DNA from: an uncultured Alphaproteobacteria bacterium
Lineage (GTDB): Bacteria > Pseudomonadota > Alphaproteobacteria > ATCC43930 > CGMCC-115725
Assembly: GCA_963701815.1 (NCBI GenBank)
Contig: CAVPBN010000003.1
Span: 152,081 to 216,080 of the forward strand
Direction: 5' to 3'
Length of the DNA stretch: 64,000 bases
The translations under genes and the position numbers were made by a program. This document shows positions 2,707 through 58,664 of this stretch, piece by piece (the stretch's first letter is position 1; every line of letters starts with the position of its first letter). The notes under the pieces were generated by a model, which was not told where the DNA came from, did no database searches, and saw nothing but the letters and a program-made list of their open reading frames with translations.

Positions 2707-3686
2707 CTCGGCTGGTCGATGTCGGCAAACGCCTCCTCGGCATCGTCGGCAAAGCCGAAGAACTCCCAGGTCTGCCGCATATGAGCGGGAAGCGGCGCCG
2801 CGATCCGCAGGGTGCCGCCCTGCGGATTGGGGATCGTCAGCGCCCGGGCGTGAAGATGCAGCCGGCGCGAGGCCGGCACGGCGGCGAGATGCGGCGCGTC
2901 GCCGCCGTATTTGGCGTCGCCGAGGATCGGTACGCCGATCGCGGCGCAATGCGCGCGCAGCTGATGGGTGCGACCGGTGACCGGCAGCAGGGCGAGCCAG
3001 CTGGCCCGCCCGCCGGCGCTGTCGACGAGGCGATAATCGGTGACGGCGTGCCGGCCTTCCTCCGGGTCGGCGCGGACGCGTTCGCCGCCGGCGCCGCCGC
3101 GCTTGGCCAGGGCCAGGTTGATCCGCCCCCGCGCCGGTTTCGGCAGCCCGACGACGATCGCCCAGTACAATTTGCGCGTCGTCTTTTCGCGGAAGGCGCG
3201 GGTCAGAAATGCCGCGGCCGCAGCGGTGCGGGCGAGGACCAGCACTCCGCTCGTCTCCTTGTCGAGCCGGTGAACCAGACGCGGCCGCTCGGCATGGCCG
3301 AAGCGCAGCCCGTCGAGCATCCCGTCGAGATGCCGCTCGGTCCGGGTCCCGCCCTGTACGGCGAGACCAGGCGGCTTGTCGAGCACGATCATCGCCTCGT
3401 CGCGATGCAGAACCAGCCGCTGCAGCTCGGCCTCGTCCTCGGGGCTGACCCTCGCGGGCGGCTGCGTCCGCGCGGCGTCGATCAATTGCGGCAGGCGGAT
3501 TTCCTGGCCGGCGGCGAGCCGGTCTCCGGCGCGCGCCCGCTTGCCGTCGACCCTGATCTGCCCGGTGCGCAGCAGTTTTTCGAGCCGGCCGTGAGCCAGC
3601 GCCGGATAATGGCGTTTGAACCAGCGGTCGAGCCGCAACGGCCCGTCCGCTTCGCCGATCGTGATCGTCTCGACCGAATTCGTCAT
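2703..3686 (-). CDS. RluA/RluC-family 23S rRNA pseudouridine synthase with an N-terminal S4-like domain
   Basis: 327 aa from MTNSVETITIGE. Catalytic motif HRLDKETSGVLVLAR is present, followed by YWAIV and GRTHQLR motifs. ATGA overlap with the rarA stop at 3683-3686. Confidence 0.9.
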   Translation of the reverse strand: MTNSVETITIGEADGPLRLDRWFKRHYPALAHGRLEKLLRTGQIRVDGKRARAGDRLAAGQEIRLPQLIDAARTQPPARVSPEDEAELQRLVLHRDEAMIVLDKPPGLAVQGGTRTERHLDGMLDGLRFGHAERPRLVHRLDKETSGVLVLARTAAAAAFLTRAFREKTTRKLYWAIVVGLPKPARGRINLALAKRGGAGGERVRADPEEGRHAVTDYRLVDSAGGRASWLALLPVTGRTHQLRAHCAAIGVPILGDAKYGGDAPHLAAVPASRRLHLHARALTIPNPQGGTLRIAAPLPAHMRQTWEFFGFADDAEEAFADIDQPR

Positions 3687-4982
3687 GGCGGCGCCGCGGC
3701 GTTGCGCCGGCGAAGCGCGTCCCAGTAGTCGAGCCGCTTTTTGACCTCGCGCTCGAAGCCGCGCTCGCTTGGCCGGTAGAAGATACGCCGCGCGGTCCCG
3801 TCGGGAAAGTAGTTCTGGCCCGAAAAACCCTCTTCGGTCGCGTGGTCGTAGACATAGCCCTTGCCGTAGCCGAGGTTGCGCATCAACCGCGTCGGCGCAT
3901 TCAGGATGTGCATCGGCGGCATCAGCGAGCCGGTGTCGCGGGCCATCCGGCCGGCTTCGCCAAAGGCGGTGTAGACGGCATTCGATTTCGGCGCGGTCGC
4001 CAGGTAGATCACGCATTGGGCGATCGCCAGCTCGCCCTCGGGCGAACCCAGCCGATCATAGGCGTCCCAGGCGGCGAGCGCCTGGGCCACCGCCTGCGGG
4101 TCGGCGAGGCCGATATCCTCGACCGCCGCCCGGGTCAGCCGCCGCAGGATGTAGATCGGGTCTTCGCCGCCGGCCAGCATCCGCGCCAGCCAATAGAGCG
4201 CCGCATCGGTATCGGAGCCGCGCAGCGATTTGTGCAACGCGCTGATCAGATTGTAGTGGCCTTCCTGGGCCTTGTCGTAAAGCGGCGCGCGGCGCTGCAC
4301 GAGTTCGGCCAGTTGCTGCGGTCCGAGCGCGGCGTCGATCCGGCAGGCGGGCGATCTCCTCGACCAGGTTGAACAGAAAGCGGCCGTCGCCGTCGGCCAT
4401 CGCGCGCAGCGCGGCGCGCGCCTCGCCGGTCAGCGGCAGGTCGCACCCGAGCGCCTGCTCGGCCCGACGCAGCAAGGCTTCGAGGTCGTCGTCGCCGAGC
4501 CGGCGCAGCACGAACACCTGGGCGCGCGACAGCAAGGCGCCGATCAGCTCGAAGGACGGATTTTCGGTCGTCGCCCCGACCAGGACCACGGTGCCGTCCT
4601 CGACAACCGGCAGAAACGCGTCCTGCTGGGCCCGGTTGAAGCGGTGGATCTCGTCGACGAAGAGCAAAGTCCCATGGCCGATCGCGCGCCGCTTTTTTGC
4701 CGCGTCGAACACCTTGCGCAATTCTGCGACCCCGGAAAACACCGCCGATAATGCTTCGAAATGAAGATCGGTGCCCTCGGCCAGGAGCCGAGCGATCGTC
4801 GTCTTGCCGCAGCCGGGCGGCCCCCAGAGGACCATCGAGGACAATTGCCGGCGCGCCACCATATGCCCGATCGGGCCGTTCGGGCCGATCAGATGGTCCT
4901 GGCCGACGATGTCGGCGAGCCGCCGCGGCCGCAGCCGGTCGGCGAGCGGATGAGGCGCCTGGGTCTCGAACAGCGTACTCAT
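3683..4982 (-). pseudogene. rarA: Replication-associated recombination protein A (RarA/MgsA), split by one frame change near 4339-4346
   Basis: ORF 4056-4982 carries Walker A GPPGCGKTT and Walker B LLFVDEIHRF. ORF 3683-4300 carries the conserved C-terminal half (RRAPLYDKAQEGHYNLISALHKSLRGSD...YLATAPKSNAVY...). The two frames join as ..EEIARLP / IDAALGPQQLAELVQRRAPLYDK. Confidence 0.9.
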
Positions 4983-28970: not shown

Positions 28971-29225
28971 ATGGCCCTGAACATCAAGGATCCGGCGACC
29001 GAAAAATTCGTGCGCGAACTCGCCGCAGCAGCCGGAGAATTGGTTACAACCGCGGTGCGCAGAGCGGCCGAAGAACGTTTGCAGAGGGTTCGGCTGCGGC
29101 GTGGTGGACGCAGTCTGGCGGCCGAAATCATCGAGATTGGAAGACGCTGCGCCGCGTTGCCGGATGTCGATACCCGCTCGGCGGAGGAAATCCTCGGTTA
29201 TGACGAGCACGGGCTGCCGCGCTGA
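28971..29225 (+). CDS. vapB: VapB-type (Rv0623/PSK-like) antitoxin
   Basis: 84 aa, MALNIKDPATEKFVRELAAAAGE..TTAVRRAAEERL... Its stop overlaps the vapC start (TGATG). Confidence 0.8.
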   Translation: MALNIKDPATEKFVRELAAAAGELVTTAVRRAAEERLQRVRLRRGGRSLAAEIIEIGRRCAALPDVDTRSAEEILGYDEHGLPR

Positions 29226-29653
29226 TGGTCATCGACAGCTCGGCAATCGTCGCGGTGCTGCTGAACGAGAAAAACGCCGCCCAAATCGCCCAGGCGATCG
29301 AGGCCGCCTCGCAGCGCCTGCTCTCGGCGGTAAACCTGCTGGAGGCCTCGATCGTGATCGAAAGCCGTAAGGGCGAAGCCGGCGGCCGCGAGCTCGATTT
29401 GCTGCTCTATCGCGCCGCGATCGAGATTGTCGCGGTCGATCAAGACCAGGCCGAGACCGCGCGCATCGCCTGGCGGCGTTTCGGCAAGGGCCGCCATTCC
29501 GCCGGGCTCAATTACGGCGACTGCTTTGCCTATGCTCTGGCAAAGAGCAGGGGCCTGCCGTTGCTGTTTCAGGGCGACGATTTCTCGCGAACCGACATCG
29601 ATGCGGTTTCGCTGCAGCCGGACCCGACGCGGCCGGAAGTCGGAGCGAGCTGA
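29225..29653 (+). CDS. vapC: VapC PIN-domain ribonuclease toxin
   Basis: 142 aa, MVIDSSAIVAVLLNE (first acidic residue), ...NYGDCFAYALAK..LPLLFQGDDFSRTDI. These are canonical PIN motifs. Confidence 0.88.
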   Translation: MVIDSSAIVAVLLNEKNAAQIAQAIEAASQRLLSAVNLLEASIVIESRKGEAGGRELDLLLYRAAIEIVAVDQDQAETARIAWRRFGKGRHSAGLNYGDCFAYALAKSRGLPLLFQGDDFSRTDIDAVSLQPDPTRPEVGAS

Positions 29654-33502: not shown

Positions 33503-33506
33503 GCCG

Positions 33507-33566
33507 CTGTTCGTGGTGAATTTGAGCCGACCGGCTTGCGCGCCACGTTAAAAAAAGCGCTAAAAG
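33507..33566 (+). promoter_or_regulatory. Candidate SAM-II (metA-element type) riboswitch
   Basis: CGTGGTG-AATTTGAGCCGACCGGCTTGCG-CGCCACG-TTAAAAAAAGCGCTAAAAGG. It has a P1 stem, a GGCUUG loop and an A-rich tail with AAAGC, as recalled for alphaproteobacterial SAM-II leaders, and it lies upstream of a methionine-biosynthesis gene. Confidence 0.55.
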
Positions 33567-33584
33567 GTCGGGAGTTCGAAAGAA

Positions 33585-33616: not shown

Positions 33617-33657
33617 TGCCCGGATCGGCGCGGCCGCAGCCCGGAGAGACCCAGCCG

Positions 33658-34863
33658 ATGGCCAAGCCCGTTCTGCCCGCCGATCTCGCCGCCTCCGTCG
33701 CGCCGGCGACCCTGCTGGTGCGCGGCGGCGCCACCCGTACCCTGCATGACGAGACCTGCGAGGCGTTGTTCATGACCTCGGGCTTCGTCTACGACGACGC
33801 CGCCTCGGCCGAAGCCGCCTTCGCCCAGGATGGCTCGCGCTATGTCTATTCGCGCTATCGCAACCCTACCGTGGCGATGTTCGAGGAAAGGCTGCGGCTG
33901 ATCGAGGGGGCCGAGGCCTGCCGCGCGACCGCCAGCGGCATGGCGGCGGTGTTCGCCGCTCTCTTATGCCGGCTGCGCGCCGGTCAGAAGGTGGTGTCGA
34001 GCCGGGCATTGTTCGGCTCGTGCCATTACATCGTCAGCGAATTGCTGCCGCGTTGGGGCGTTGAGACCGTGCTGGTCGACGGGCGCGACCTCGGCGCCTG
34101 GGAAACCGCGCTCGGCGGCGGCGCCGCACTCGCTTTTTGCGAGAGCCCGTCCAACCCGGCGATGGAGATCGTCGACCTGACCGAGGTGGCGCGGCTGACC
34201 CATCGCGCCGGCGGCCTGCTGGTCGTCGACAACGTCTTTGCCACGCCGCTGTTGCAAAAGCCGTTGGCGCTCGGCGCCGACGTCGTCGTCTATTCGGCCA
34301 CCAAGCACATCGACGGCCAGGGCCGCTGTCTCGGCGGCGCGATCCTCGCCTCGGAGAAATTCATCAAGGACGATCTCGGCCTGTTCTATCGCCATACCGG
34401 GCCGTCATTGAGCCCGTTCAACGCCTGGCTGTTGCTGAAGGGGCTGGAGACTCTCGAACTGCGCGTCGACCGGCAATGCGAAACCGCCGCGGCGGTCGCC
34501 GATTACCTCGAGCGGCATCCGAAGATCGCCCGGGTGCTCTACCCCGGCCTGCCGAGCCACCCTCAATACGCACTTGCCGCGCGGCAGATGAAGGCCGGCG
34601 GCAGCCTCGTCTGCTTCGACGTCGCCGGCGGCAAGGAGGGCTGTTTCCGGTTTCTCGACGCGCTGCGGCTGGTCGACATCTCGAACAATCTCGGCGATTC
34701 GAAGAGCCTCGTTACCCATCCGGCGACGACGACGCATTCGCGCCTCAAGCCCGAGGCGCGCGCCGAACTCGGCATCGGCGACGGGCTGGTGCGCTTTTCG
34801 GCCGGGCTCGAAGCCGCCTCCGATCTGCTCGGCGATTTCGAACAGGCGCTGAACCGGGTTTAG
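33658..34863 (+). CDS. metZ: O-succinylhomoserine sulfhydrylase
   Basis: 401 aa. It is a Cys/Met-metabolism PLP enzyme with YSRYRNPT, the PLP-lysine region YSATKHIDGQG and THPATTTH. The overall sequence is MetZ-type. Confidence 0.85.
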   Translation: MAKPVLPADLAASVAPATLLVRGGATRTLHDETCEALFMTSGFVYDDAASAEAAFAQDGSRYVYSRYRNPTVAMFEERLRLIEGAEACRATASGMAAVFAALLCRLRAGQKVVSSRALFGSCHYIVSELLPRWGVETVLVDGRDLGAWETALGGGAALAFCESPSNPAMEIVDLTEVARLTHRAGGLLVVDNVFATPLLQKPLALGADVVVYSATKHIDGQGRCLGGAILASEKFIKDDLGLFYRHTGPSLSPFNAWLLLKGLETLELRVDRQCETAAAVADYLERHPKIARVLYPGLPSHPQYALAARQMKAGGSLVCFDVAGGKEGCFRFLDALRLVDISNNLGDSKSLVTHPATTTHSRLKPEARAELGIGDGLVRFSAGLEAASDLLGDFEQALNRV

Positions 34864-49665: not shown

Positions 49666-50625
49666 TCAGTTGACGTGCACGCCGGCTTCCTTGGCGACCC
49701 GGATCCAGCGCGGGATTTCCGCACGGATCAGCGCGGCGAGGGTTGCGGGCGGCCCGCCGACCGGCTCGCCGCCGATCGCGGCAAAGCGGGCGACGATTTC
49801 GGGCTGATGGACGACGCGGTCGAAGGCGGCGCTGAGCCGCGCGACAATGGGTTTGGGGGTACCGGCCGGCGCCAGCACCCCGTACCAGGTCACCGCGGTG
49901 AAGCCGGGTAGGGTCCGCTCGATGGTCGGGAGATCCGGCAGCGCCGCGGCGCGACGACCGCCGCTGACCGCGAGGCCGCGCACCTTTCCGGCAGCGATCA
50001 TCGGGATCGCGGCAATCAGCGGCGCCAGCATGACCTGCGCCTTGCCGGCGGCCACCGCCGCCAGCGCCCGCCCGCCGCCCTCGTACGGCACATGGGCGAT
50101 ATCGACGCCGCTGGTGATCTTGAACAATTCGAAACCGAGCTGGCTCGGCCCGCCCGCCCCAGCCGAGGCATAGCTCAGCTTGCCGGGATGGCTCTGGGCG
50201 TAGGCGATCAACTCTTCAACCAATTCGACCGGCAGCGACGGGTCGACCACCAACGCGTACTGCGCGACCAGCAACAGCGATACCGCCGCGAACGCGCTTT
50301 CGCTGTCGTAAGGCAGCTTGCCGAAAGTGCCGGGATGGATCGCGAAGGAACTCGGCGTGACCAACAAGGTGTAACCGTCGGCCGGCGCCCTGGCCACCAG
50401 ATCGGTCCCGACGACGCCGTCCCTGCCGGCGACATAGTCGATGACGACCTGCTGACCCAGAGTCTTGCCGAGTTCCGGGCCGACCGCGCTGGCAACCGCC
50501 TGATCCGGCCCGCCCGATGGAAACGGCACGACGAGGCGGATCGGCCGGTCCGGATAGGCCGCCTGCGCTCCCGCGCCCCCCAAGCCCAGCCCGACCACGA
50601 TCAGCAGCAGCAGCCGGATCGACAT
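49666..50625 (-). CDS. Bug/TctC-family tripartite tricarboxylate transporter substrate-binding protein
   Basis: 319 aa from MSIRLLLLIVVGLGLGGAGAQAAYPDRPIRLVVPFPSGG. This is the hallmark Bug N-terminus. No tctA/tctB is adjacent. Confidence 0.88.
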   Translation of the reverse strand: MSIRLLLLIVVGLGLGGAGAQAAYPDRPIRLVVPFPSGGPDQAVASAVGPELGKTLGQQVVIDYVAGRDGVVGTDLVARAPADGYTLLVTPSSFAIHPGTFGKLPYDSESAFAAVSLLLVAQYALVVDPSLPVELVEELIAYAQSHPGKLSYASAGAGGPSQLGFELFKITSGVDIAHVPYEGGGRALAAVAAGKAQVMLAPLIAAIPMIAAGKVRGLAVSGGRRAAALPDLPTIERTLPGFTAVTWYGVLAPAGTPKPIVARLSAAFDRVVHQPEIVARFAAIGGEPVGGPPATLAALIRAEIPRWIRVAKEAGVHVN

Positions 50626-50790
50626 TCCCAAGGTCTTTCTCCCGATGGCCTCGTACGGCCGCCGCCAATCTCGCTCCGCGCCGATCTGGGCGCAACAATT
50701 GCGGTCGATCGCCGGCGGGAGTCGCCCGCCGCGCGGCGATCGTGGCCCTCGCCGGCGCGCCGGGCTAATCTTGCGCCAAATCTGCGAAGA

Positions 50791-52327
50791 ATGGAGAAGC
50801 GGCGGATGCTCGACCTGCCGGCGGCGGTGGCCGCCGCCGTTTACGACCCATTGGTCGCCGCGCTGGCCGTATTTGCCCTCGCCGGGCTGCTGACGCATTT
50901 TTTGTTTCGCCGGCACGCCCTCGGGCGGGCGATCGCCCGAGTGGTCCTGCTGATCGCCCTGACGATCGTCCTGCTGCATGCCGGGGTCGTGCCTTACCAG
51001 AAGCTGACGCTGACCGGGACCCCGTTCCGGGATGCGGCGCATGCGATGTTGAAGATCGCCTGGTGGCTGTGGACCGCCTGGTTCCTGGTCGGCTTTCTGC
51101 GGGCTTTTGTCGTCACCGAGCACCGGCCGCGCGAGGGCAAGCTGATCCAGGACCTCCTCGCCGGCCTGATTTACCTGGCGGCCGTCCTTGCCATCATCGC
51201 CTATGTCTTCGACCTGCCGATTCAGGGCCTGCTGGCAACTTCCGGGGCCATCGCCATCATCCTCGGTCTCGCCTTGCAGAGCACCTTGAGCGACGTATTC
51301 TCCGGGATCGTGCTGAATTTCAGCCGCCCCTATCGGCCGGGCGACTGGATCAGCATCGACGGCGGCACCGATGGTCGCGTCATCGAGATGAACTGGCGCG
51401 CAACCCACGTGCTGACGGCAAAGCGCGATCTGGCGATCGTACCGAACAGCACTATCGCCAAGGCAAAGATCGTCAACGCCAGTTCCCCGTCCACCATCCA
51501 CGGGATGACCGTGACGGTCCAGCTCGACGCCGCGACCCCGCCGACCGTCGGCGCCGAGATCCTCGAACATGCGGTCTTGAACTGCCGGCGGATACTGGCG
51601 ACGCCGGCCCCGTCGATCATGGTCAAATCGATCACCGCGAGCTTCAGCGAATTCGACATCGGTTTTTTTGTCGAGGAGCTGGGGATGTCGACGGGTACGC
51701 AGAACGAGCTGTTCGATCTGATTTTCCGGCACCTGGCGGCCGCCGGCATCGAGCTGGCGACCGCGCCGAATCAGTTTTACCGGGCGCCGGATAAAGAGAC
51801 CGGGGCGACCCGGCCCGCAGCCGTACGGACGCTCGACCTGGTCGCGATCTTTGCCGAGCTGACCGCGGCGGAGCGGCAGAATTTGGCTGCAAGCCTGAAG
51901 CCGCACCTGCATGAACGCGGTGACGTCCTGGTCGAGCCGGGGATGGTTTTGCAATCGCTGTTCATCATCGGGGCGGGCGTGCTGTCGTTTACCGCCGAGG
52001 CATCGGAGGGCGAGATCGAGCTGATGCGCCTGGGCCCGGGCGATCATTTCGGCGAGATCGGACTGCTGACCGAACACGCCCGCTTCGGCAAAACTATCGG
52101 CGCTGACATCGGCAACCGTCTACGAACTGGCCAGGGCGGATTTGTCGCCGGTGCTCGAGGCACGGCCTGCGGTCGCTCAGGAACTGTGCCACGCGCTCGC
52201 CCGGCGGCAGGCCGCCGGCCAGCTGATCAATGCGGCCGAGATCGGAGAGAATTTGCCGCCGAACCGGGTGGCGAGCTGGTTCGCCGACCACTTGCACCGA
52301 CTGTTCGACCCGGCCGGCGTCCGATGA
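50791..52327 (+). CDS. MscS-family mechanosensitive channel fused to a C-terminal cyclic-nucleotide-binding domain (bCNG-like); frame change near 52067-52085 inside the cNMP domain
   Basis: The MscS core is ATSGAIAIILGLALQSTLSDVFSGIVLNFSRPYRPGDWISI...GRVIEMNWRATHV. The cNMP domain is LFIIGAGVLS...RLGPGDHFGEIGLLT. The end of the domain (ALTSATVYELARADLSPVLEARPAVAQEL..ARRQ) is in another frame (ORF 52142-52327), whose TGA overlaps the hlyD ATG. Confidence 0.75.
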
Positions 52328-53352
52328 GCGAGCCGTTGTCCGCTGCCGAAGCAGCCCGATCGAAACCGCCCTCCCGGCTCAATCCGCGCCTGATCATCGC
52401 CGGCTGCCTGTTTGCCGCCGTCATCGGCTTGGCGATCTGGTATCTGGCTCGGCCCGAACCGTTGCTGGTGCAAGGCGAGGCTGAAAGCACCCGGGTCGAT
52501 ATCGCCGCGCGGGTCTCCGGGCGGCTGCTGAAAATCGAGGTCAGTCGCGGCCAAAACGTCTCGGCTGGCGCGACCTTGGCCGTCATCGACAATCCGGAGC
52601 TGGTCGCGGAATTGCGCGAAGCCGAAGCCGAGAAAGTGGTGGCGGACGCGGAACTGGAGCGCATCAAGGTCGGCACGCGCCCCGAGATCATCGCCCAGCG
52701 TAAAGCCGAAATCGACCGCGCCGCGGCCGACCTGACTTTCGCGCAACAGACCTTCAGCCGCACAAGACAGCTTGCCGCTCGGCAATTCGCGCCGCAGTCG
52801 AAGCTCGACGAAGATACTGATGCATTGACGCTGGCCCAGCGCCGACTCGACCAAGCCAGGCTCGCCTACGATGAAGCGGTGCGCGGCTTCACCGCCGAGG
52901 AGCATCAGATCGCCGAAGCCGATGTCGTCAAGGCAGCGGCTAAAATTGACACGATCAAGGCGCTGGTTGACCAGTTGAGGATAACTGCGCCGATCGCTTC
53001 TCAAATCTACCAGATTCCGGTCGAGGAGGGCGAGGTCGTCGTTCCCGGCCTGCCGCTGATGTCCCTGATCGATCTCGGCGACACCTGGCTCGGCTTTTCG
53101 CTGCGCGAGGATTTGATCGCCGGGCTGAAGGTCGGGGATCGTTTTACGGTCGAGATCCCGGCGCTCGGCAACCGCTCGGTTACGGCTCAGGTGCGGGTAA
53201 TCGCGGCGAAGGGTGAATACGCCGGCTGGCGTGCGACGCGGGCTACCGGCGATTTTGATTTGCGCACCTTCGCGATCCGCGCCTACCCGGTCGAGAAGAT
53301 CGATGGGCTGCGGCCGGGCATGAGCGTCTACACCGATTGGGCGAGGCGCTCG
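52324..53352 (+). CDS. HlyD-family membrane-fusion (periplasmic adaptor) protein 1; no in-frame stop before the next gene in this sequence
   Basis: The N-terminal TM is LIIAGCLFAAVIGLAIWYL. It has the lipoyl-like motif IAARVSGRLLKIEVSRGQNVSAGATLAVIDNPEL, a coiled coil and the C-terminal barrel ...GLRPGMSVYTDW. It aligns along its length with HlyD 2. Confidence 0.8.
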
Positions 53353-54528
53353 ATGAAACCGCCGCCGCGCCCGGGCCTGGCGCTGGTCGCGTTGCGCGAA
53401 ATCCGGTTTTTCCGGCGTGATCCCGCCGGATACTTGCTGGTTATCGTCGTCCCGCTGATCGGCTTTGCAATCCTGACCTGGACGTTCAGCAGCGCGGTGG
53501 TGCGTGGACTCGATATCGTCGTCGTCGATACCGACCGCTCCGACGTGTCTGCCGACCTTATCCAATCTATCGCGGCTGCACCCGGGTTGCGCATTGTCGG
53601 GCGCGCCGACGATTTGAAGAGCGCCACTCGAGCAATCCGCTCCGGCCGAGCGATCGGCGCGGTCTACATTCCGCCGAACTTCGAACTGGATATGCGCGCG
53701 GCGCGTCGACCGCAAATCATCGCCTTCTACAACGCCCAATACTTCACTCCGGGGAACATAGCCGCTAGAGGGTTGAGCGACTCGATCTCCGATGCCGTCG
53801 CAAAGTTGTCGCCGCGCATGACGTCCGTCTGCCGTCTGCCGGCGGCGGCTCGCTGGTTGTGGAGCAATACGTGCTGACCAACCCGGCGCTGAATTATGCC
53901 GGCTTTCTACTGCGCGCGGTGATGCCGACGACGTTGCATGTCGTCATTGCGATCGCCACGGCTTACGCGGTCGGCAGCGAGTTCTCGCGCCGCAGCCGAC
54001 GGGCTTGGCTGCGTTGCGCCGACGGCAGCCCGCTGATCGCGCTGGCCGGCAAATTGCTGCCGCTGTTCGCACTGTTTTTTACCATGCTCGGGATCGAAGC
54101 GCTGATCCTGCACGCGGGGTTCGAACTGCCGTATCGCGGCAACGTGACGATGATGGTCGTTGCGGCGTTGCTGTTCGTGGTGGCTTATCAATCGCTCGCG
54201 GCCTTGGTGCTGTTGCTGGTCCGCAACCTGGCGCTCGGTTTGAGCCTCGTCGCGATCATCGCGTCCCCGGCCTTTGGCTTTGCCGGCGTCGGCCTGCCGG
54301 TGCTGGCGATGAACGGGTTCGCGCGGAGCTGGGGCGCGCTGCTGCCGTTGCGCTGGTACCAGCAGCTTTTGTTCGACCAGGCGGCTCGCGGTGCGTCGGT
54401 GCACGCCTCGGCGCCGGCTTTCGCGATCCTGGCCGGGATGGCGCTCGGCCTCTTTAGCCTGGCTTGGTGGCGATTGAGCCGGCTCCCCCGGCAGCGGTCC
54501 GGCGAAGAGGACCCGCGGCTGCAACAGG
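53353..54528 (+). CDS. ABC-2-type transporter permease module 1 (frame change between 53766 and 53877; the end boundary is approximate)
   Basis: The N-terminus MKPPPRPGLALVALREIRFFRRDPAGYLLVIVVPLIGFAILTWTF is followed by a large periplasmic loop (IVVVDTDRSDVS...AVYIPPNFE). The TM bundle continues in ORF 53859-55676 (EQYVLTNPALNYAGFLLRAVMPTTLHVVIAI ... LFSLAWWRLSRL). Confidence 0.7.
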
Positions 54529-55676
54529 ATGGCCGCGGCATCCCCGGCGGCTTTGTCGGCGAGTGGCGCCGCGTCCTCGCCGATCGCGGCGTATTCAGCC
54601 TGATGGTCGTGGCGCCGATATTTTACGGCGTATTCTATCCGCAACCCTATCTCGGTCAGCTCGTGCGCAAGATCCCGATCGCCGTGGTCGACGACGATCG
54701 CACCTCGTTGAGCCGCCGCCTGATCGAGGCCCTCGATGCCGACGAGGCCATCTCGGTCGCGGTCCGCGCCCCGGCTCTCGACGTGGCCCAGCAGGCGCTG
54801 TTCGCTCGCCGGGTGTTCGGCATCCTGGAGATTCCGCCCGATACCGAGCGAGAGGTGCTGAAAGGGAATAGAGCCAGGCTCCCGGCCTATGTCGATTCCG
54901 CCTATTTTCTCGTCTTCAATCGCACCTTGCAGGGGATCGTCGAAAGCGCCGCAGACATCAACATCACCGACATTTCGCGCGGTTCGCGTCTGGACGGTGC
55001 GCAGGCCCGGCTGGCGCTGACCGCGTCGAGCCCGGCCGAGCTATTGACCGAGCCGCTTTACAACCCGACCGGCGGCTATGCCAGCTATGTCGTGCCGGCC
55101 GCCTTTGTGCTGATCGTACAGCAGACCTTGCTGATGGGCGCAGCGACCCTGACGGCGCTGGGTTTCGCGGCGCGCCGGGGCGTCCGCACCATGGCGCCGG
55201 GGCCGAGCCGGCTTCTCGGTCGCGGCTTCGCCCATCTGGCGATCTATCTTCCGGCGCTGGCCCTGTTCCTGGTGATTCTGCCGCGGGTCTACGGCTTCTC
55301 GGCATTGGGAAGGGCGACTGATCTCGCGCTCTTTGCCGTCCCTTTCGTGCTCGCGACCAGCTTCATGGCGCAGGCCGCCGGCAGTTTCTTCAGGCACCGA
55401 GAGACGGCGGTTCTGATTTTTGTCGCGACGACTCTGCCGCAATTCTTTCTGGTCGGCGTGTCGTGGCCGCGCGAGATGATACCGCCGGCGCTCAATCAGA
55501 TGCGCCGCATCTTCCCCAGCGAGTCGGCGATCGACGGGCTGGTGCGGATCGGGCAGATGGGAGCCCGCCTCGGCGAGGTTCGGGCGGATTGGATCTATCT
55601 GTGGCTGCTTACCGCGGGCTATTTCGTCCTCGCTCTTGCAGCTTCACGGCGCCGGGCGTCGAGCGATGCCGCCTAG
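54529..55676 (+). CDS. ABC-2-type transporter permease module 2 (in frame with module 1, no intervening stop; the start is undefined)
   Basis: ..GFVGEWRRVLADRGVFSLMVVAPIFYGVFYPQPY, then a periplasmic loop (IAVVDDDRTSLS...GILEIPPDTE), then the TM bundle LYNPTGGYASYVVPAAFVLIVQQTLL... Confidence 0.65.
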
Positions 55677-56655
55677 AACCGGGGAGCACTTGCACACGAT
55701 CGCGGTGCTGCTGGTGGTAGCGGCAGTAGCCGGCATCCTTGCGTTTTTGGTTCTGGGCTCCAGCGTGCCGGCGTCGCGCCCTCCCGGCGTGGTTCAGGCG
55801 ACCGAAATCAAGATCGCGCCCGAAATCAGCGGCCGCCTGCTGCGGTTTGCGGTCGGTTCGGGACAAAGTGTGCGCGCGGGAGATGTCCTTGCCCGGCTCT
55901 CGAACCCTGAGCTCGAAGCCGCATTGGTGCTGGCCGAAGCGCAATTCGCGCAGGCTCGCGCCGCTCGCGATCGGGTTTACGCCGGCCCGCGGCAAGAGCA
56001 GGTCGACGCGCTCGCGCGCGACATCGACATGGCGAATGCAAATCTGACCTACGCACGGCAGCAATTCGCCCGCTCCTCGCAACTTGCAGCAGCCGGGTTC
56101 GCCTCGCATCAAGACCTCGACAAGGCGGCGACGGCGGCCGACACGGCGAGCGCCAATGTTTCGCGCGCAAAGGAACGATACCAGGCCGCCCGTCTCGGTC
56201 CCACCCGAGAAGAACGAGAGATCGCCGATGCCAGGGTCGCGAGCGCCGCAGCGGCTGTGTCCGTCGTCGCCGCCCGTGTCGCGAAGCTGCAGATCCGCGC
56301 GCCGGCGAACGGCTCCGTCGCCCTGCTCGTGGCCGAGCCGGGCGAGGCCATCGTCCCGGGCCAGCCGATCATGACGCTGCAGGCGGCCGGACGCCGCTGG
56401 GCGAGCTTCAATTTGCGCGAGGACCAGTTCGAAAGCCTCCGCATCGGCTCGGCGGTCCGCCTCGCCGCGTCCGACGGCATGGCCGGCATCGACGGCCATG
56501 TTACCGAAATCGTGCCGCGGGGCGAATTCGCGACATGGCGGGCTGCGCGCGCCGTCGGTGACCATGACCTCAACACGTTTCAGCTCCGCGTCGACGCCGA
56601 CGCGAGAGACAATGAGCTGCAACCGGGGATGACCGTCCGACTGCGCCGGCGATAG
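55666..56655 (+). CDS. HlyD-family membrane-fusion protein 2
   Basis: 329 aa from MPPRTGEHLHTIAVLLVVAAVAGILAFLVLG. It has IAPEISGRLLRFAVGSGQSVRAGDVLARLSNPEL and a C-terminus ..LQPGMTVRLRRR. It overlaps the permease ORF end by 11 nt. Confidence 0.85.
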   Translation: MPPRTGEHLHTIAVLLVVAAVAGILAFLVLGSSVPASRPPGVVQATEIKIAPEISGRLLRFAVGSGQSVRAGDVLARLSNPELEAALVLAEAQFAQARAARDRVYAGPRQEQVDALARDIDMANANLTYARQQFARSSQLAAAGFASHQDLDKAATAADTASANVSRAKERYQAARLGPTREEREIADARVASAAAAVSVVAARVAKLQIRAPANGSVALLVAEPGEAIVPGQPIMTLQAAGRRWASFNLREDQFESLRIGSAVRLAASDGMAGIDGHVTEIVPRGEFATWRAARAVGDHDLNTFQLRVDADARDNELQPGMTVRLRRR

Positions 56656-56660
56656 CGCGA

Positions 56661-58165
56661 TCAAAAGGCGAAGGCGTAGAGGCGGTCGTCGGCGCCGACA
56701 TAGAGGCGGTTGCCCGCCGCCAGCAGGGTCTGGAAATGCCGCAATCCGGTCATTGCATGGCCGGCGCGCCGCCATCGAACAAGGTCTCGCCGGTGTCGCC
56801 CCGATAGCCGTGCAGCCGGTTGTCGCCCTCGGCGCCGACAATCCAGACGATCGGGTCCGCCCGCCCGTCGGTGGTCGTCACGATCGGCGCGCCGGCGCCG
56901 CTCGGCGCCGCGCACCAGGCGGTCGCGAGGCTCGGCGGCGAACCGCCGCGGATCTTCAGCACCGTCAATCCGCCGCGCCGGGCCGATTTCCCGCATTGCG
57001 CGCCCGATGCCTGGAACGCGACAAACACGCCGTCGGCAGCGGGATAGACGGCCGGTGCGGTGCGGATCGGTCCGGTCGACACGGTCTCGGCGACCAGACC
57101 GCCGCCGAGACCGCCGAGATCGTCACGGTCGAGCAGATAGGCCCGGCCGTCCTTGCCGAGCGCCAGGACCAGCGCCTGGGCGCCGTTGCCCTCCGGCAAA
57201 TTCAGCAGCATCGGGTTGGTGCCGCCGAGATCGGCGTCGCGCCGGTCGAGGGCATGCCAGTCGGTCGGGGCGAAAAAATCCTGCTTGCGGTCGTCGCGGC
57301 GCAGATCGGGCACCAGGCGAAAGACCGCCTCGCCGTCGCCCCAGGCCGGGGTGTCGATCGTATTGCCGGTGGCGACGAACAACGACCGCCCGTCGCCGGC
57401 GATGCCGCCCGGCGCCCAGATCCCGCCGCCCGGCGCGCGGGTATGCCAGCTGACGACCTTGTGCGGGTCCTCGAGGTCGATGCCGACGACCCAGCCGCGA
57501 TAGTCGCCGCAATCGCCGAAATGCCCGCCGTAAGGGACGTATACCCGGCCGCCGAGGGTGGTCAGGGCGCCGCGCTGATTCTGGTCGGACGCGTTGAAAT
57601 GCGGGCCTTGGCCGGCGAGCGCCGTCGCGACATCGACCGGCCAGCCCGGCAAGGTTGCGCCGTCGGTCAGCGACAGAGCGAAGATCTTGTGGTGCGGCCC
57701 GTCGCCCTCGGCGACCATCGCATCGAGATAGACCGCCTGGGTCTTCGGATCGATGACCGGCGTGCCGGTGACCCCGAGCGGGTCGATATTGCCGCAGGGC
57801 TGGTCCGCCAGCGCCACCGGCCGGCCGAGCGTCCGCACCCACCGCACGCCGCCCGACTGCGCGTCGATCGCCTGCACCGTATCGCTCTCGGTCGCGACGA
57901 TCAGCTCTCCGGCGGACCCGCCCGGAGGCTGCCAATAGAGCGGCTGGGCGTAGAGGTGGCCGGAGAAATGCGGGGCAAAGCCCCGATCGAGGCGGATATG
58001 CCGGGCCCGCTCCCAGGTCAGCGCCGGCGCCGCATAGGCGCCGCTGCGGTCCGCGCCGCCATGATAGGCGAGGACCGACTGGGCATGGCAGCTCCCGGCG
58101 ACCGGCGCCGCCGGCAACAGCGCAGCCAGCACGCGCAGCAAACCGGTCGCGATCAAACGACGCAT
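56661..58165 (-). CDS. Secreted PQQ-like beta-propeller repeat protein; the last ~30 codons are in another frame (shift near 56748-56760)
   Basis: The signal peptide is MRRLIATGLLRVLAALLPAAPVAGSCHAQS. Repeated propeller blades follow (VQAIDAQSGGVRW, GRVYVPYGG, GRAYLLDRDDLG, NRLHGYRGDTGE). The main frame stops at 56750 (..GGAPAMQ*), while the next frame continues MTGLRHFQTLLAAGNRLYVGADDRLYAFAF* to 56661, which looks like the missing last blade. Confidence 0.7.
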
Positions 58166-58289
58166 CGGATTTTTCGATCCCGGCTCAAATCCGCAAGCGG
58201 AACGGCATCGTAGACTGGTCTTGCCGCGATGAAGCGTGATATGGCGTCGCGGACGCCGCCAAGGCGGTCCCGGAACGGAGAAAATCCCG

Positions 58290-58664
58290 ATGCGCCGCGC
58301 CCTGTCGACCGCCGCCTGGATGCTCGCCTTCGGGTCGGTCATGCTGCCCGCCTTGCCGGCGCTGGCCGGTTTCGGCGCCGTCGCCTGGGACAAGGACACC
58401 GGCAAATACGGCGTCAGTTGGAACCAGGCGACGCGCAGCAAGGCGGCCGAGATGGCGCTCAGCCAATGCGGGACCAGCGGCTGCAAGGTGGTGGGTCAAG
58501 TCAATCCAAAGCGATGCGGAGCGTTCGCCTCCACGGAAGACGGAAAGGGATGGGGTGCAGCGGGTCGAGCCACGATCGACGAAGCCCGGCTCGCTTCGCT
58601 CGCGAATTGTCGGAAGGCCAAGCTCGGGGAGTGCACCGTCCGGACCAGCGACTGCAACAAATAG
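58290..58664 (+). CDS. DUF4189-like secreted Cys-containing protein
   Basis: 124 aa from MRRALSTAAWMLAFGSVMLPALPALAGFGAVAWD..GKYGVSWNQATRSKAAEMALSQCG.SGCKVV......CGAFAS...KGWGAAGRATIDEARLASLANC. Confidence 0.7.
   Translation: MRRALSTAAWMLAFGSVMLPALPALAGFGAVAWDKDTGKYGVSWNQATRSKAAEMALSQCGTSGCKVVGQVNPKRCGAFASTEDGKGWGAAGRATIDEARLASLANCRKAKLGECTVRTSDCNK

Follow-up and report, generated by a model that had tools for sequence, protein, structure and literature searches.

A widespread envelope cassette of two HlyD adaptors and a fused ABC-2 permease without an ATPase gene, and its facultative MscS-like neighbour

We analysed a 64-kb stretch of DNA from an uncultured alphaproteobacterium (contig CAVPBN010000003.1; this whole stretch is hereafter the window) and, within it, a block of genes on the plus strand at 50791-56655. 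The block consists of four genes, which encode an MscS-like channel, a HlyD adaptor (adaptor 1), a fused double ABC-2 permease, and a second HlyD adaptor (adaptor 2). The last three form a three-gene envelope cassette that lacks an ATPase gene and is widespread; the window has one copy of it. We give a probability of roughly 0.45, a little under even odds, to the reading that this cassette is an efflux system of the tripartite type that works independently of a nucleotide-binding domain (NBD), is probably driven by an ion gradient, and has the MscS-like protein as a facultative partner.

Results

A single coding block with a fused permease

Open reading frame (ORF), frame, and Pfam analyses show that the block is continuously coding on one strand. 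The Pfam families that score above their gathering thresholds follow one another in the order MS_channel_2nd and cNMP_binding, HlyD_D23/HlyD_3, two stretches of ABC2_membrane_3, and again HlyD_D23/HlyD_3. An earlier reading of this DNA, made from its letters alone (the sequence-only reading), had divided the block into five packed modules. Their common strand stands, but their number does not, since there are four genes. The two ABC-2 modules that had been taken as separate belong to one gene, because 109 of the 120 permease homologues listed are single proteins of 767-804 aa; the others are shorter, apparently truncated or split. Intact homologues of the window's permease measure 775-781 aa. 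Of the boundaries that had been described, the 11-nt overlap at 55666-55676 is present, and the ATGA at 52324-52327 is there too, but its overlap with the stop codon of the MscS-like gene exists in a shifted frame only. Both flanking genes lie on the minus strand, as had been stated.

The cassette is widespread and its loci lack a dedicated ATPase gene

A profile scan of the species representatives of GTDB returned 375 loci with a relative of the cassette. The best 80 of these were fetched and four more were added from contig look-ups, and the resulting 84 loci make up, together with the window, the set of 85 (designated below by L numbers) whose ORFs were translated and searched with the window's proteins. 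In all 84 fetched loci, as in the window, a HlyD adaptor, two ABC-2 modules, and a HlyD adaptor follow one another on the same strand, their boundaries overlapping or abutting. In 81 of the 85 loci both adaptors can be seen; in the other four, a contig end truncates the locus. Most hosts belong to the Alphaproteobacteria (Stellaceae, Bradyrhizobium, Methylocella, Methylobacterium, Bosea, Rhizobium, and Mesorhizobium), joined by Candidatus Cybelea, Binatia, and one Janthinobacterium metagenome-assembled genome (MAG). Cultured carriers include Bradyrhizobium genosp. P BDV5111, Methylocella silvestris TVC, Methylobacterium soli, and Bosea caraganae. The clade as a whole comprises 673 clusters at 50% identity (E<=1e-30).

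Searching plasmids with tblastn reached more distant relatives. R. leguminosarum (36% identity) has a HlyD gene, two unfused permease genes, and a 506-aa MscS/cNMP gene; R. oryzihabitans has genes for TetR, HlyD, and the permeases, beside an oleate hydratase gene; Acinetobacter, Bacteroides, and Sphingomonas have TolC, HlyD, permease, and permease; and a conjugative IncC plasmid of Citrobacter carries HlyD and a fused permease flanked by IS elements. No ATPase gene is present in any of these. Across phyla, the cassette occurs on plasmids and in mobile settings, again with no ATPase gene. The weakest match, in Methylophaga, is a classical operon that does include an ATPase gene (HlyD, double ATPase, permease, permease).

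The sequence-only reading had seen no ORF with Walker A and ABC signature motifs around the block. This result extends to the whole window, which nowhere contains the two motifs as a pair and in which the one clear Walker A is that of rarA; nor is there an ABC_tran domain in the 47 other coding segments of the window that were scanned with Pfam. That reading had also allowed for a local deletion of the ATPase gene. The locus searches also used MlaF, MalK, and E. coli YbhF as queries for NBD genes, and a dedicated NBD gene was found in 0 of the 93 loci inspected, on which the 84 fetched loci and the more distant relatives agree. Because the distant relatives lack the gene as well, its absence is long-standing and widespread in a large clade and is not a local deletion.

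The NBD genes that did turn up near the cassette were examined and set aside as dedicated partners. Those upstream in L014, L016, and L012 are part of a divergent operon of ABC_tran, FtsX, and LolA_like genes, and that of L002 is mlaF, part of an MlaFED cluster at a distance of 8 kb. In L053 (13273-15174), L060, L078, and L083, which belong to one subclade, the gene directly downstream of HlyD2 on the same strand encodes EttA by its sequence, an ABC-F translation factor; the same neighbour is seen in L079 and, in part, in L064. EttA is a housekeeping protein of translation. Its adjacency recalls the orphan ATPase proposed for an analogous operon of Helicobacter pylori (PMC9570263), a resemblance that may be a coincidence.

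That operon, HP1489-HP1486, also bears on the statement that the arrangement matches no described system, which is not fully true. It consists of genes for a TolC-like protein, a membrane fusion protein, and two ABC-2 proteins, without an ATPase gene; its authors note the missing ATPase explicitly and found no clear candidate by comparative genomics (PMC9570263). Compared by its published description, it resembles the window's cassette in combining an adaptor with two ABC-2 permease modules and no ATPase gene, but differs in having the TolC-like HP1489 in the operon, one adaptor, unfused permeases, and no MscS-like neighbour. In the literature searched, this study is the sole description of ATPase-less or orphan ABC-2 permeases that we found.

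All-against-all clustering of the flanking ORFs revealed no general neighbour of the cassette except the MscS gene, and otherwise synteny specific to individual clades, e.g., one cluster with an OmpR/KdpE-like regulator located 2-5 kb upstream. Three genomes hold two copies of the cassette, with a different MscS context at each copy: MFD00125.bin.2.61 (L026/L038), Rhizobiales AFS091992 (L067/L070), and Lichenifustis flavocetrariae (L054/L075).

The permease has a type V fold and has lost a loop motif of ATPase-coupled relatives

ABC2_membrane_3, matched in two stretches, scores 205 bits in the window ORF and 279 bits in the intact homologue P0008 (cut-off 31.6). The best NCBIfam match, ABC2_perm_RbbA, reaches 121 bits against a cut-off of 1050, which is far below equivalog level. 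The protein has 12 predicted transmembrane (TM) helices, six per module, and two periplasmic domains of ~130-140 aa, each between TM1 and TM2. The large periplasmic loop that had been claimed for each module is thus borne out, both by hydropathy analysis and by an AlphaFold2 model of P0008 (pLDDT 80.9, pTM 0.81). The best Foldseek matches of this model are ABCH-9C, ABCA1/3/4/7, and Pdr5 (E down to 2e-7), all of them type V exporters and several of them lipid-handling; a sequence search of the PDB gave weak ABCH matches only.

Alignment of both permease halves with YbhS, YbhR, and the Methylophaga permeases shows that the ATPase-coupled permeases share V-A-R-E-x-E-x-G-T-x-E at the cytoplasmic end of TM2. 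Written as R-E-x-E-x-G-[TS], the motif occurs in all six ATPase-coupled permease domains compared, i.e., YbhS (as REWERGT), YbhR, YhhJ (as REREHGTVE), the membrane domain of RbbA (as REKELGS), and both Methylophaga permeases. The TM2-TM3 loop of the ATPase-less clade has it in none of 362 sequences: 0/120 closest homologues, 0/92 locus-derived sequences, and 0/150 best cluster representatives, the last comprising 13 fused proteins, 74 single modules, and otherwise fragments. This loop is cytoplasmic, because the N-terminus is Arg-rich and cytoplasmic and the periplasmic domain follows TM1. We take the first cytoplasmic loop of type V exporters to be the coupling helix on which the NBD docks. 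In the fused family, the loop of half 2 has low conservation (0.45) and low confidence in the model, and that of half 1 (P0008 208-226) is the best-conserved stretch of the protein (0.91), with a differing sequence, GTEFSRRSRRAWLRC. As judged by these alignments, the loss of the motif together with the degenerate half-2 loop speaks for a loss of canonical NBD coupling, and the absent motif would fit a pump that does not use ATP.

Two paralogous adaptors have diverged unequally

Both adaptors match HlyD_D23, HlyD_3, and a lipoyl-like domain of the Biotin_lipoyl_2 type in Pfam, and a hydrophobic N-terminal anchor can be read in their translations. By tblastn, adaptor 1 is 86% identical to its homologue in L003, and each adaptor of L003 matches the window's other adaptor at 39-40% identity, which upholds the view that the second adaptor is a paralogue of the first. 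Their best NCBIfam match is the YbhG-type PRK03598 (106-122 bits against a cut-off of 393), followed by MdtN. The hairpin-tip motif RxxxLxxxxxxS, which is associated with TolC docking, is found in 70 of 77 sequences of adaptor 2 and in 19 of 92 of adaptor 1, which mostly has Pro at the Ser position.

In TriAB of Pseudomonas aeruginosa, two adaptors are known to play unequal roles, and TriABC-OpmH needs two different adaptors. The likeness lies in the two paralogous, unequally diverged adaptor genes beside one inner-membrane transporter gene; TriC is an RND transporter, not of the ABC-2 fold. No outer-membrane factor gene occurs in the window; the Acinetobacter, Bacteroides, and Sphingomonas relatives carry a TolC gene in the operon itself.

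Possible energy sources: an ion gradient or an ATPase in trans

The NBD-independent efflux system would work as follows. The permease would be a pseudo-heterodimeric type V ABC membrane domain that has lost NBD docking and would export a substrate of amphipathic or lipid-like nature from the inner membrane or the periplasm, powered by an ion gradient and not by ATP. The two adaptors would form a mixed periplasmic ring, in which adaptor 2 would contact an outer-membrane duct of TolC type encoded elsewhere. A weak hint at fatty-acid or lipid substrates comes from lipid-related neighbours of distant ATPase-less relatives (L091 4058-10842; L099 646-7056), namely the oleate hydratase gene of R. oryzihabitans, which lies by TetR regulators, and thioesterase and patatin-like phospholipase genes in Sphingomonas.

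A number of points weigh against this scheme. Every solved structure of the permease's fold among the Foldseek matches carries an NBD, and the R-E-x-E-x-G-[TS] loop is presumed, by analogy with type V structures, to be the NBD-docking coupling helix. The conserved half-1 loop leaves room for another cytoplasmic partner; an N-terminal amphipathic helix motif (RE...R/D) is also retained, and the two together would suit the docking of such a partner, possibly an unrecognised or unlinked ATPase. The homologue alignment has no invariant acidic residue in a TM core that would suggest a proton relay. The lipid links (oleate hydratase, patatin-like phospholipase, and thioesterase genes by distant relatives) are anecdotal. 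Moreover, the H. pylori study works on the assumption that an ATPase acts in trans, for which it names the orphan HP0853 as a possibility, and describes the operon of H. anseris as including an ATPase gene (PMC9570263).

Several of these points, i.e., the NBDs of all solved relatives, the interface-type N-terminal helix with the half-1 loop, and the published assumption for HP1486-89, count in favour of the main alternative, an ordinary ABC-type tripartite exporter with its ATPase encoded elsewhere in the genome and acting in trans. The ettA genes directly downstream of HlyD2 would count for it too; against them, EttA is a housekeeping factor and adjoins the cassette in one subclade only. Against a trans-acting ATPase stand the 93 loci without a dedicated NBD gene, the occurrence of the cassette on plasmids and in mobile contexts of several phyla without an ATPase, and the loss from the entire clade sample of a loop motif that all six ATPase-coupled domains possess, along with the degenerate half-2 loop. 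We consider this alternative unlikely, if still a serious one, and prefer the NBD-independent efflux system.

Membrane domains of ABC exporters can transport without their NBDs. The NBD-less membrane domain of MsbA carries out proton-coupled transport (PMC4979069). The same has been reported for NBD-less LmrA. Both are engineered truncations of type IV exporters, whereas in the present family the loss would be natural and ancient and would concern a type V fold.

Three frame-breaking indels in the window

The coding block does not appear as tidy genes in a mechanical ORF list, which gives 50092-53877 (1261 aa), 53859-55676 (605 aa), and 55636-56655, because three indels break the frame. These uncorrected ORFs carry a truncated cNMP_binding domain and the start of ABC2_membrane_3, then the rest of it with a second complete copy. 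In a plot of GC content at third codon positions (GC3), the coding frame switches at ~52080, returns at ~52330, and switches again at ~53840 and ~55640. Alignment with four to eight relatives places the indels as one extra base and two deletions. The extra G splits the MscS/cNMP gene inside the cNMP-type domain, as seen against four relatives. The missing two bases remove the stop codon of HlyD1, which then reads in frame into the permease; in eight relatives, HlyD1 ends in a TGA that overlaps the permease start (ATGA or GTGA). The missing T splits the permease gene. We also considered repairing the MscS frame at a TT further downstream, which would restore an Arg, and rejected it: the four relatives put the extra base at the G, and the homologues are equal in length, with Pro-Ala at that spot.

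These indels may be assembly errors or very recent decay. If decay, the operon in this genome would be a pseudogene relic, irrespective of the state of the family elsewhere. Three indels in 5.9 kb are an excess, because the other scanned genes give full-length domain matches; none of the three sits in a homopolymer run of three or more; and among the 47 further coding segments scanned with Pfam, rarA is the sole other split gene, with its AAA domain in one frame and the rest of AAA_assoc_2 and MgsA_C in another. On the other side, all 104 columns invariant across 109 homologues are unchanged in the permease after frame correction, the GC3 coding signal is intact in every frame segment of the block, and rarA shows that indels occur elsewhere in the window. 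The relatives that share this contig naming are MAGs of the Microflora Danica type, one of which (L002) has many split genes. We hold a relic to be improbable, though not greatly so, and the family is intact elsewhere whichever the cause of the indels here.

The MscS-like channel is a recurrent but facultative neighbour

After correction, the channel gene encodes 511 aa, or 506 aa from a second ATG at 50806; its intact homologues have 507 aa. The product scores 64.8 bits for MS_channel_2nd and 53.7 bits for cNMP_binding (32.8 bits uncorrected), an MscS core followed by a C-terminal cNMP_binding domain as in bCNG channels. The sequence-only reading had called it gated by cyclic nucleotides, which the alignments do not support. 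R82 of E. coli CRP, which binds the cyclic phosphate, is aligned to an Ala in the window protein, and the Glu of the phosphate-binding cassette is kept. Not one of the 22 further linked homologues in the comparison has Arg at the R82 position, and among the 120 closest homologues, the 118 that match the search pattern have Ala or, rarely, Ser or Thr. Because the R82 equivalent is replaced throughout the linked homologues, canonical binding of cAMP or cGMP is doubtful, and the protein is probably not gated by either in the canonical way. The channel thus shares the domain order of the bCNG channels and differs from them by the replaced phosphate-binding Arg of its whole clade.

The same reading had coupled the channel gene to the transporter, and this stands in part. 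An intact MscS/cNMP-type gene lies within ~7 kb of the cassette in 22 of the 85 loci and directly adjoins it in 18 of them: directly upstream on the same strand in ten, directly downstream on the same strand in five, upstream and divergent in two, and downstream and convergent in one. The other four have it 3-6 kb upstream. The gene is absent from the fetched flanks of 60 loci, and in three it is reduced to a remnant of the cNMP-type domain immediately upstream of an intact cassette (L001 8692-8949, L026 8567-8830, and L051 8511-8843). The remnants correspond to the C-terminal part, and that of L001 stands beside transposase and phage-like genes. The stop/start overlap with HlyD1, from which translational coupling had been concluded, is present here but confined to the Stellaceae-like clade; in L006 and L043, the homology blocks of MscS and HlyD1 abut. 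The linked loci are spread over at least four sequence clusters in the permease tree and are interspersed there with unlinked ones, and the unfused R. leguminosarum relative carries the gene too. In L033 and L042, the MscS protein shares only 32-35% identity with that of the window, against 54-58% in their cluster-mates L019, L035, and L036, a divergence that suggests a separate recruitment.

Conversely, MscS homologues 72-73% identical to the window's occur in four contexts with no adjoining cassette. In two of these, the Stellaceae-like L095 and L096 (6871-9524), the TctC (minus) and MscS (plus) pair is arranged as at 49669-52327 of the window and is followed by phage- or transposon-type genes, a pattern suggestive of gain or loss of the cassette as a whole. 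The link thus recurs more than chance would explain, yet it is facultative: with 22 of 85 loci linked and close homologues often elsewhere, the MscS gene is a facultative neighbour and not a fixed fifth component. Its product would accordingly be pictured as a facultative accessory or a co-regulated partner, not an obligatory subunit.

It could instead be an integral and obligatory part of the machine, for example as its ion path, energiser, or valve, in line with the sequence-only reading. The recurrence in several clusters and in the unfused relative, the variety of gene orientations, the hint of independent recruitment in L033 and L042, and the overlapping or abutting genes would all suit such a role; the 60 loci without the gene and the three with a remnant, the close homologues that live apart from any cassette, and the more distant, TolC-carrying ATPase-less relatives, which have no MscS gene, speak against it and make it very improbable.

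Surroundings of the block in the window

The features of the block and its surroundings are listed below. A promoter and terminator scan of the divergent intergenic region, the presumed promoter, found no convincing sigma-70 site and no terminator in it. The SAM_alpha riboswitch fits an alphaproteobacterial origin. Two long minus-strand ORFs are largely antisense shadows of plus-strand genes in GC-rich DNA; the longer has no Pfam match and overlaps plus-strand genes for an enoyl-CoA hydratase and a carboxylesterase.

Features of the block at 50791-56655 and other features of the window (window coordinates)
Feature	Position	Strand	Evidence or remark
MscS-like channel gene with C-terminal cNMP-binding-type domain	50791..52327	+	Pfam after frame correction; split by +1 frameshift
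cNMP-binding-type (CAP-family) domain, degenerate phosphate-binding cassette GEIGLLTEHPASAKLSAL	51913..52159	+	CRP alignment, residue census
Extra G	52078	+	DNA alignment with L006, L043, L011, L002; GC3 frame plot
HlyD adaptor 1, N-terminal membrane anchor, own stop absent here	52324..53352	+	Pfam
Two bases missing	between 53352 and 53353	+	DNA alignment with eight relatives
Fused double ABC-2 (type V fold) permease, 774 aa corrected	53353..55676	+	Homologue lengths, tblastn, Pfam, model, Foldseek
One T missing (TCGCCGCTGCAT)	between 53815 and 53816	+	Alignment with eight relatives; tblastn frame change 53811-53817
HlyD adaptor 2, 329 aa, N-terminal membrane anchor	55666..56655	+	Pfam
Divergent intergenic region, presumed promoter	50626..50790		Between TctC-family gene (minus) and MscS-like gene
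TctC-family gene	49669-50625	-	Flank of block; Pfam scan
Weakly PQQ-like propeller gene	56750-58486	-	Other flank of block
rarA/mgsA	3683-4982	-	Frameshifted near 4338
PIN-domain gene, probably VapC-type toxin	29219-29641	+	72 bits
SAM_alpha (SAM-II) riboswitch	33503-33583	+	63 bits; upstream of Cys/Met-metabolism PLP enzyme gene, 33628-34857
ORF of 1204 aa	45932-49546	-	Largely antisense shadow
ORF of 803 aa	49666-52077	-	Largely antisense shadow

Discussion

The E. coli systems YbhGFSR and YhiI-RbbA-YhhJ resemble the window's cassette in placing a HlyD adaptor beside two ABC2_membrane_3 modules with large periplasmic loops, and YbhS and YbhG are 22-30% identical to the window's proteins. The cassette differs from them in having no ATPase gene, a fused permease, a second adaptor, and no R-E-x-E-x-G-[TS]. 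The Agrobacterium operon atu4666-4668 was considered as the same system and dismissed, being of the RbbA type with an ATPase. Efflux that depends on a HlyD-type adaptor and has no ATPase is also carried out by AaeAB and MdtNOP, but with transporters of the aromatic acid exporter (PET) family, whose fold is unrelated to that of ABC-2 permeases. In the literature searched, we found no paper that deals with the cassette of Alphaproteobacteria, with the loss of the motif, or with the MscS link, and no report that connects bCNG channels with a HlyD/ABC-2 cassette; part of a large review of tripartite pumps makes no mention of ABC-2 or YbhG.

The least probable explanation is that the cassette is no pump but a passive or structural envelope complex, e.g., a stabilising scaffold or a lipid-handling platform without energy input, which the missing energy module, the lipid-handling structural neighbours, and the unstable flagellar motors of HP1486-89 mutants, for which a structural role was considered possible (PMC9570263), would favour, but which is at odds with the full efflux-type architecture (permease, adaptors, and TolC in the relatives' operons), with the hairpin-tip motif retained by adaptor 2, and with the raised ethidium sensitivity of H. 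pylori after disruption of hp1489 (PMC9570263).

The lost loop motif is a simple sequence marker that makes the question of the missing ATPase testable. If the cassette does work free of an ATPase, it would be a natural ABC fold acting as a gradient-driven pump, an idea that has so far come from the engineered truncations of LmrA and MsbA. The clade that may do so reaches clinically relevant hosts, e.g., Acinetobacter, Bacteroides, a Citrobacter IncC resistance plasmid, and possibly H. pylori. As for the bCNG channels, whose physiological role is unknown according to a 2026 review (PMC13591265), the link of a bCNG-like channel to the cassette is a lead to function, and its degenerate site warns against presuming gating by cyclic nucleotides. 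A bolder version of the NBD-independent reading, which we think unlikely but not far-fetched, is that a large, ancient clade of type V permeases has dispensed with ATP hydrolysis and, together with HlyD adaptors and a duct of TolC type, carries out tripartite efflux driven by an ion gradient, and that a recurrent subset cooperates with an MscS-like channel, the CAP-type domain of which senses a signal other than cAMP or cGMP, e.g., as a linked ion path or a release valve. If true, the family would be a natural "secondary-active ABC transporter" and would offer the first physiological context for channels of the bCNG type.

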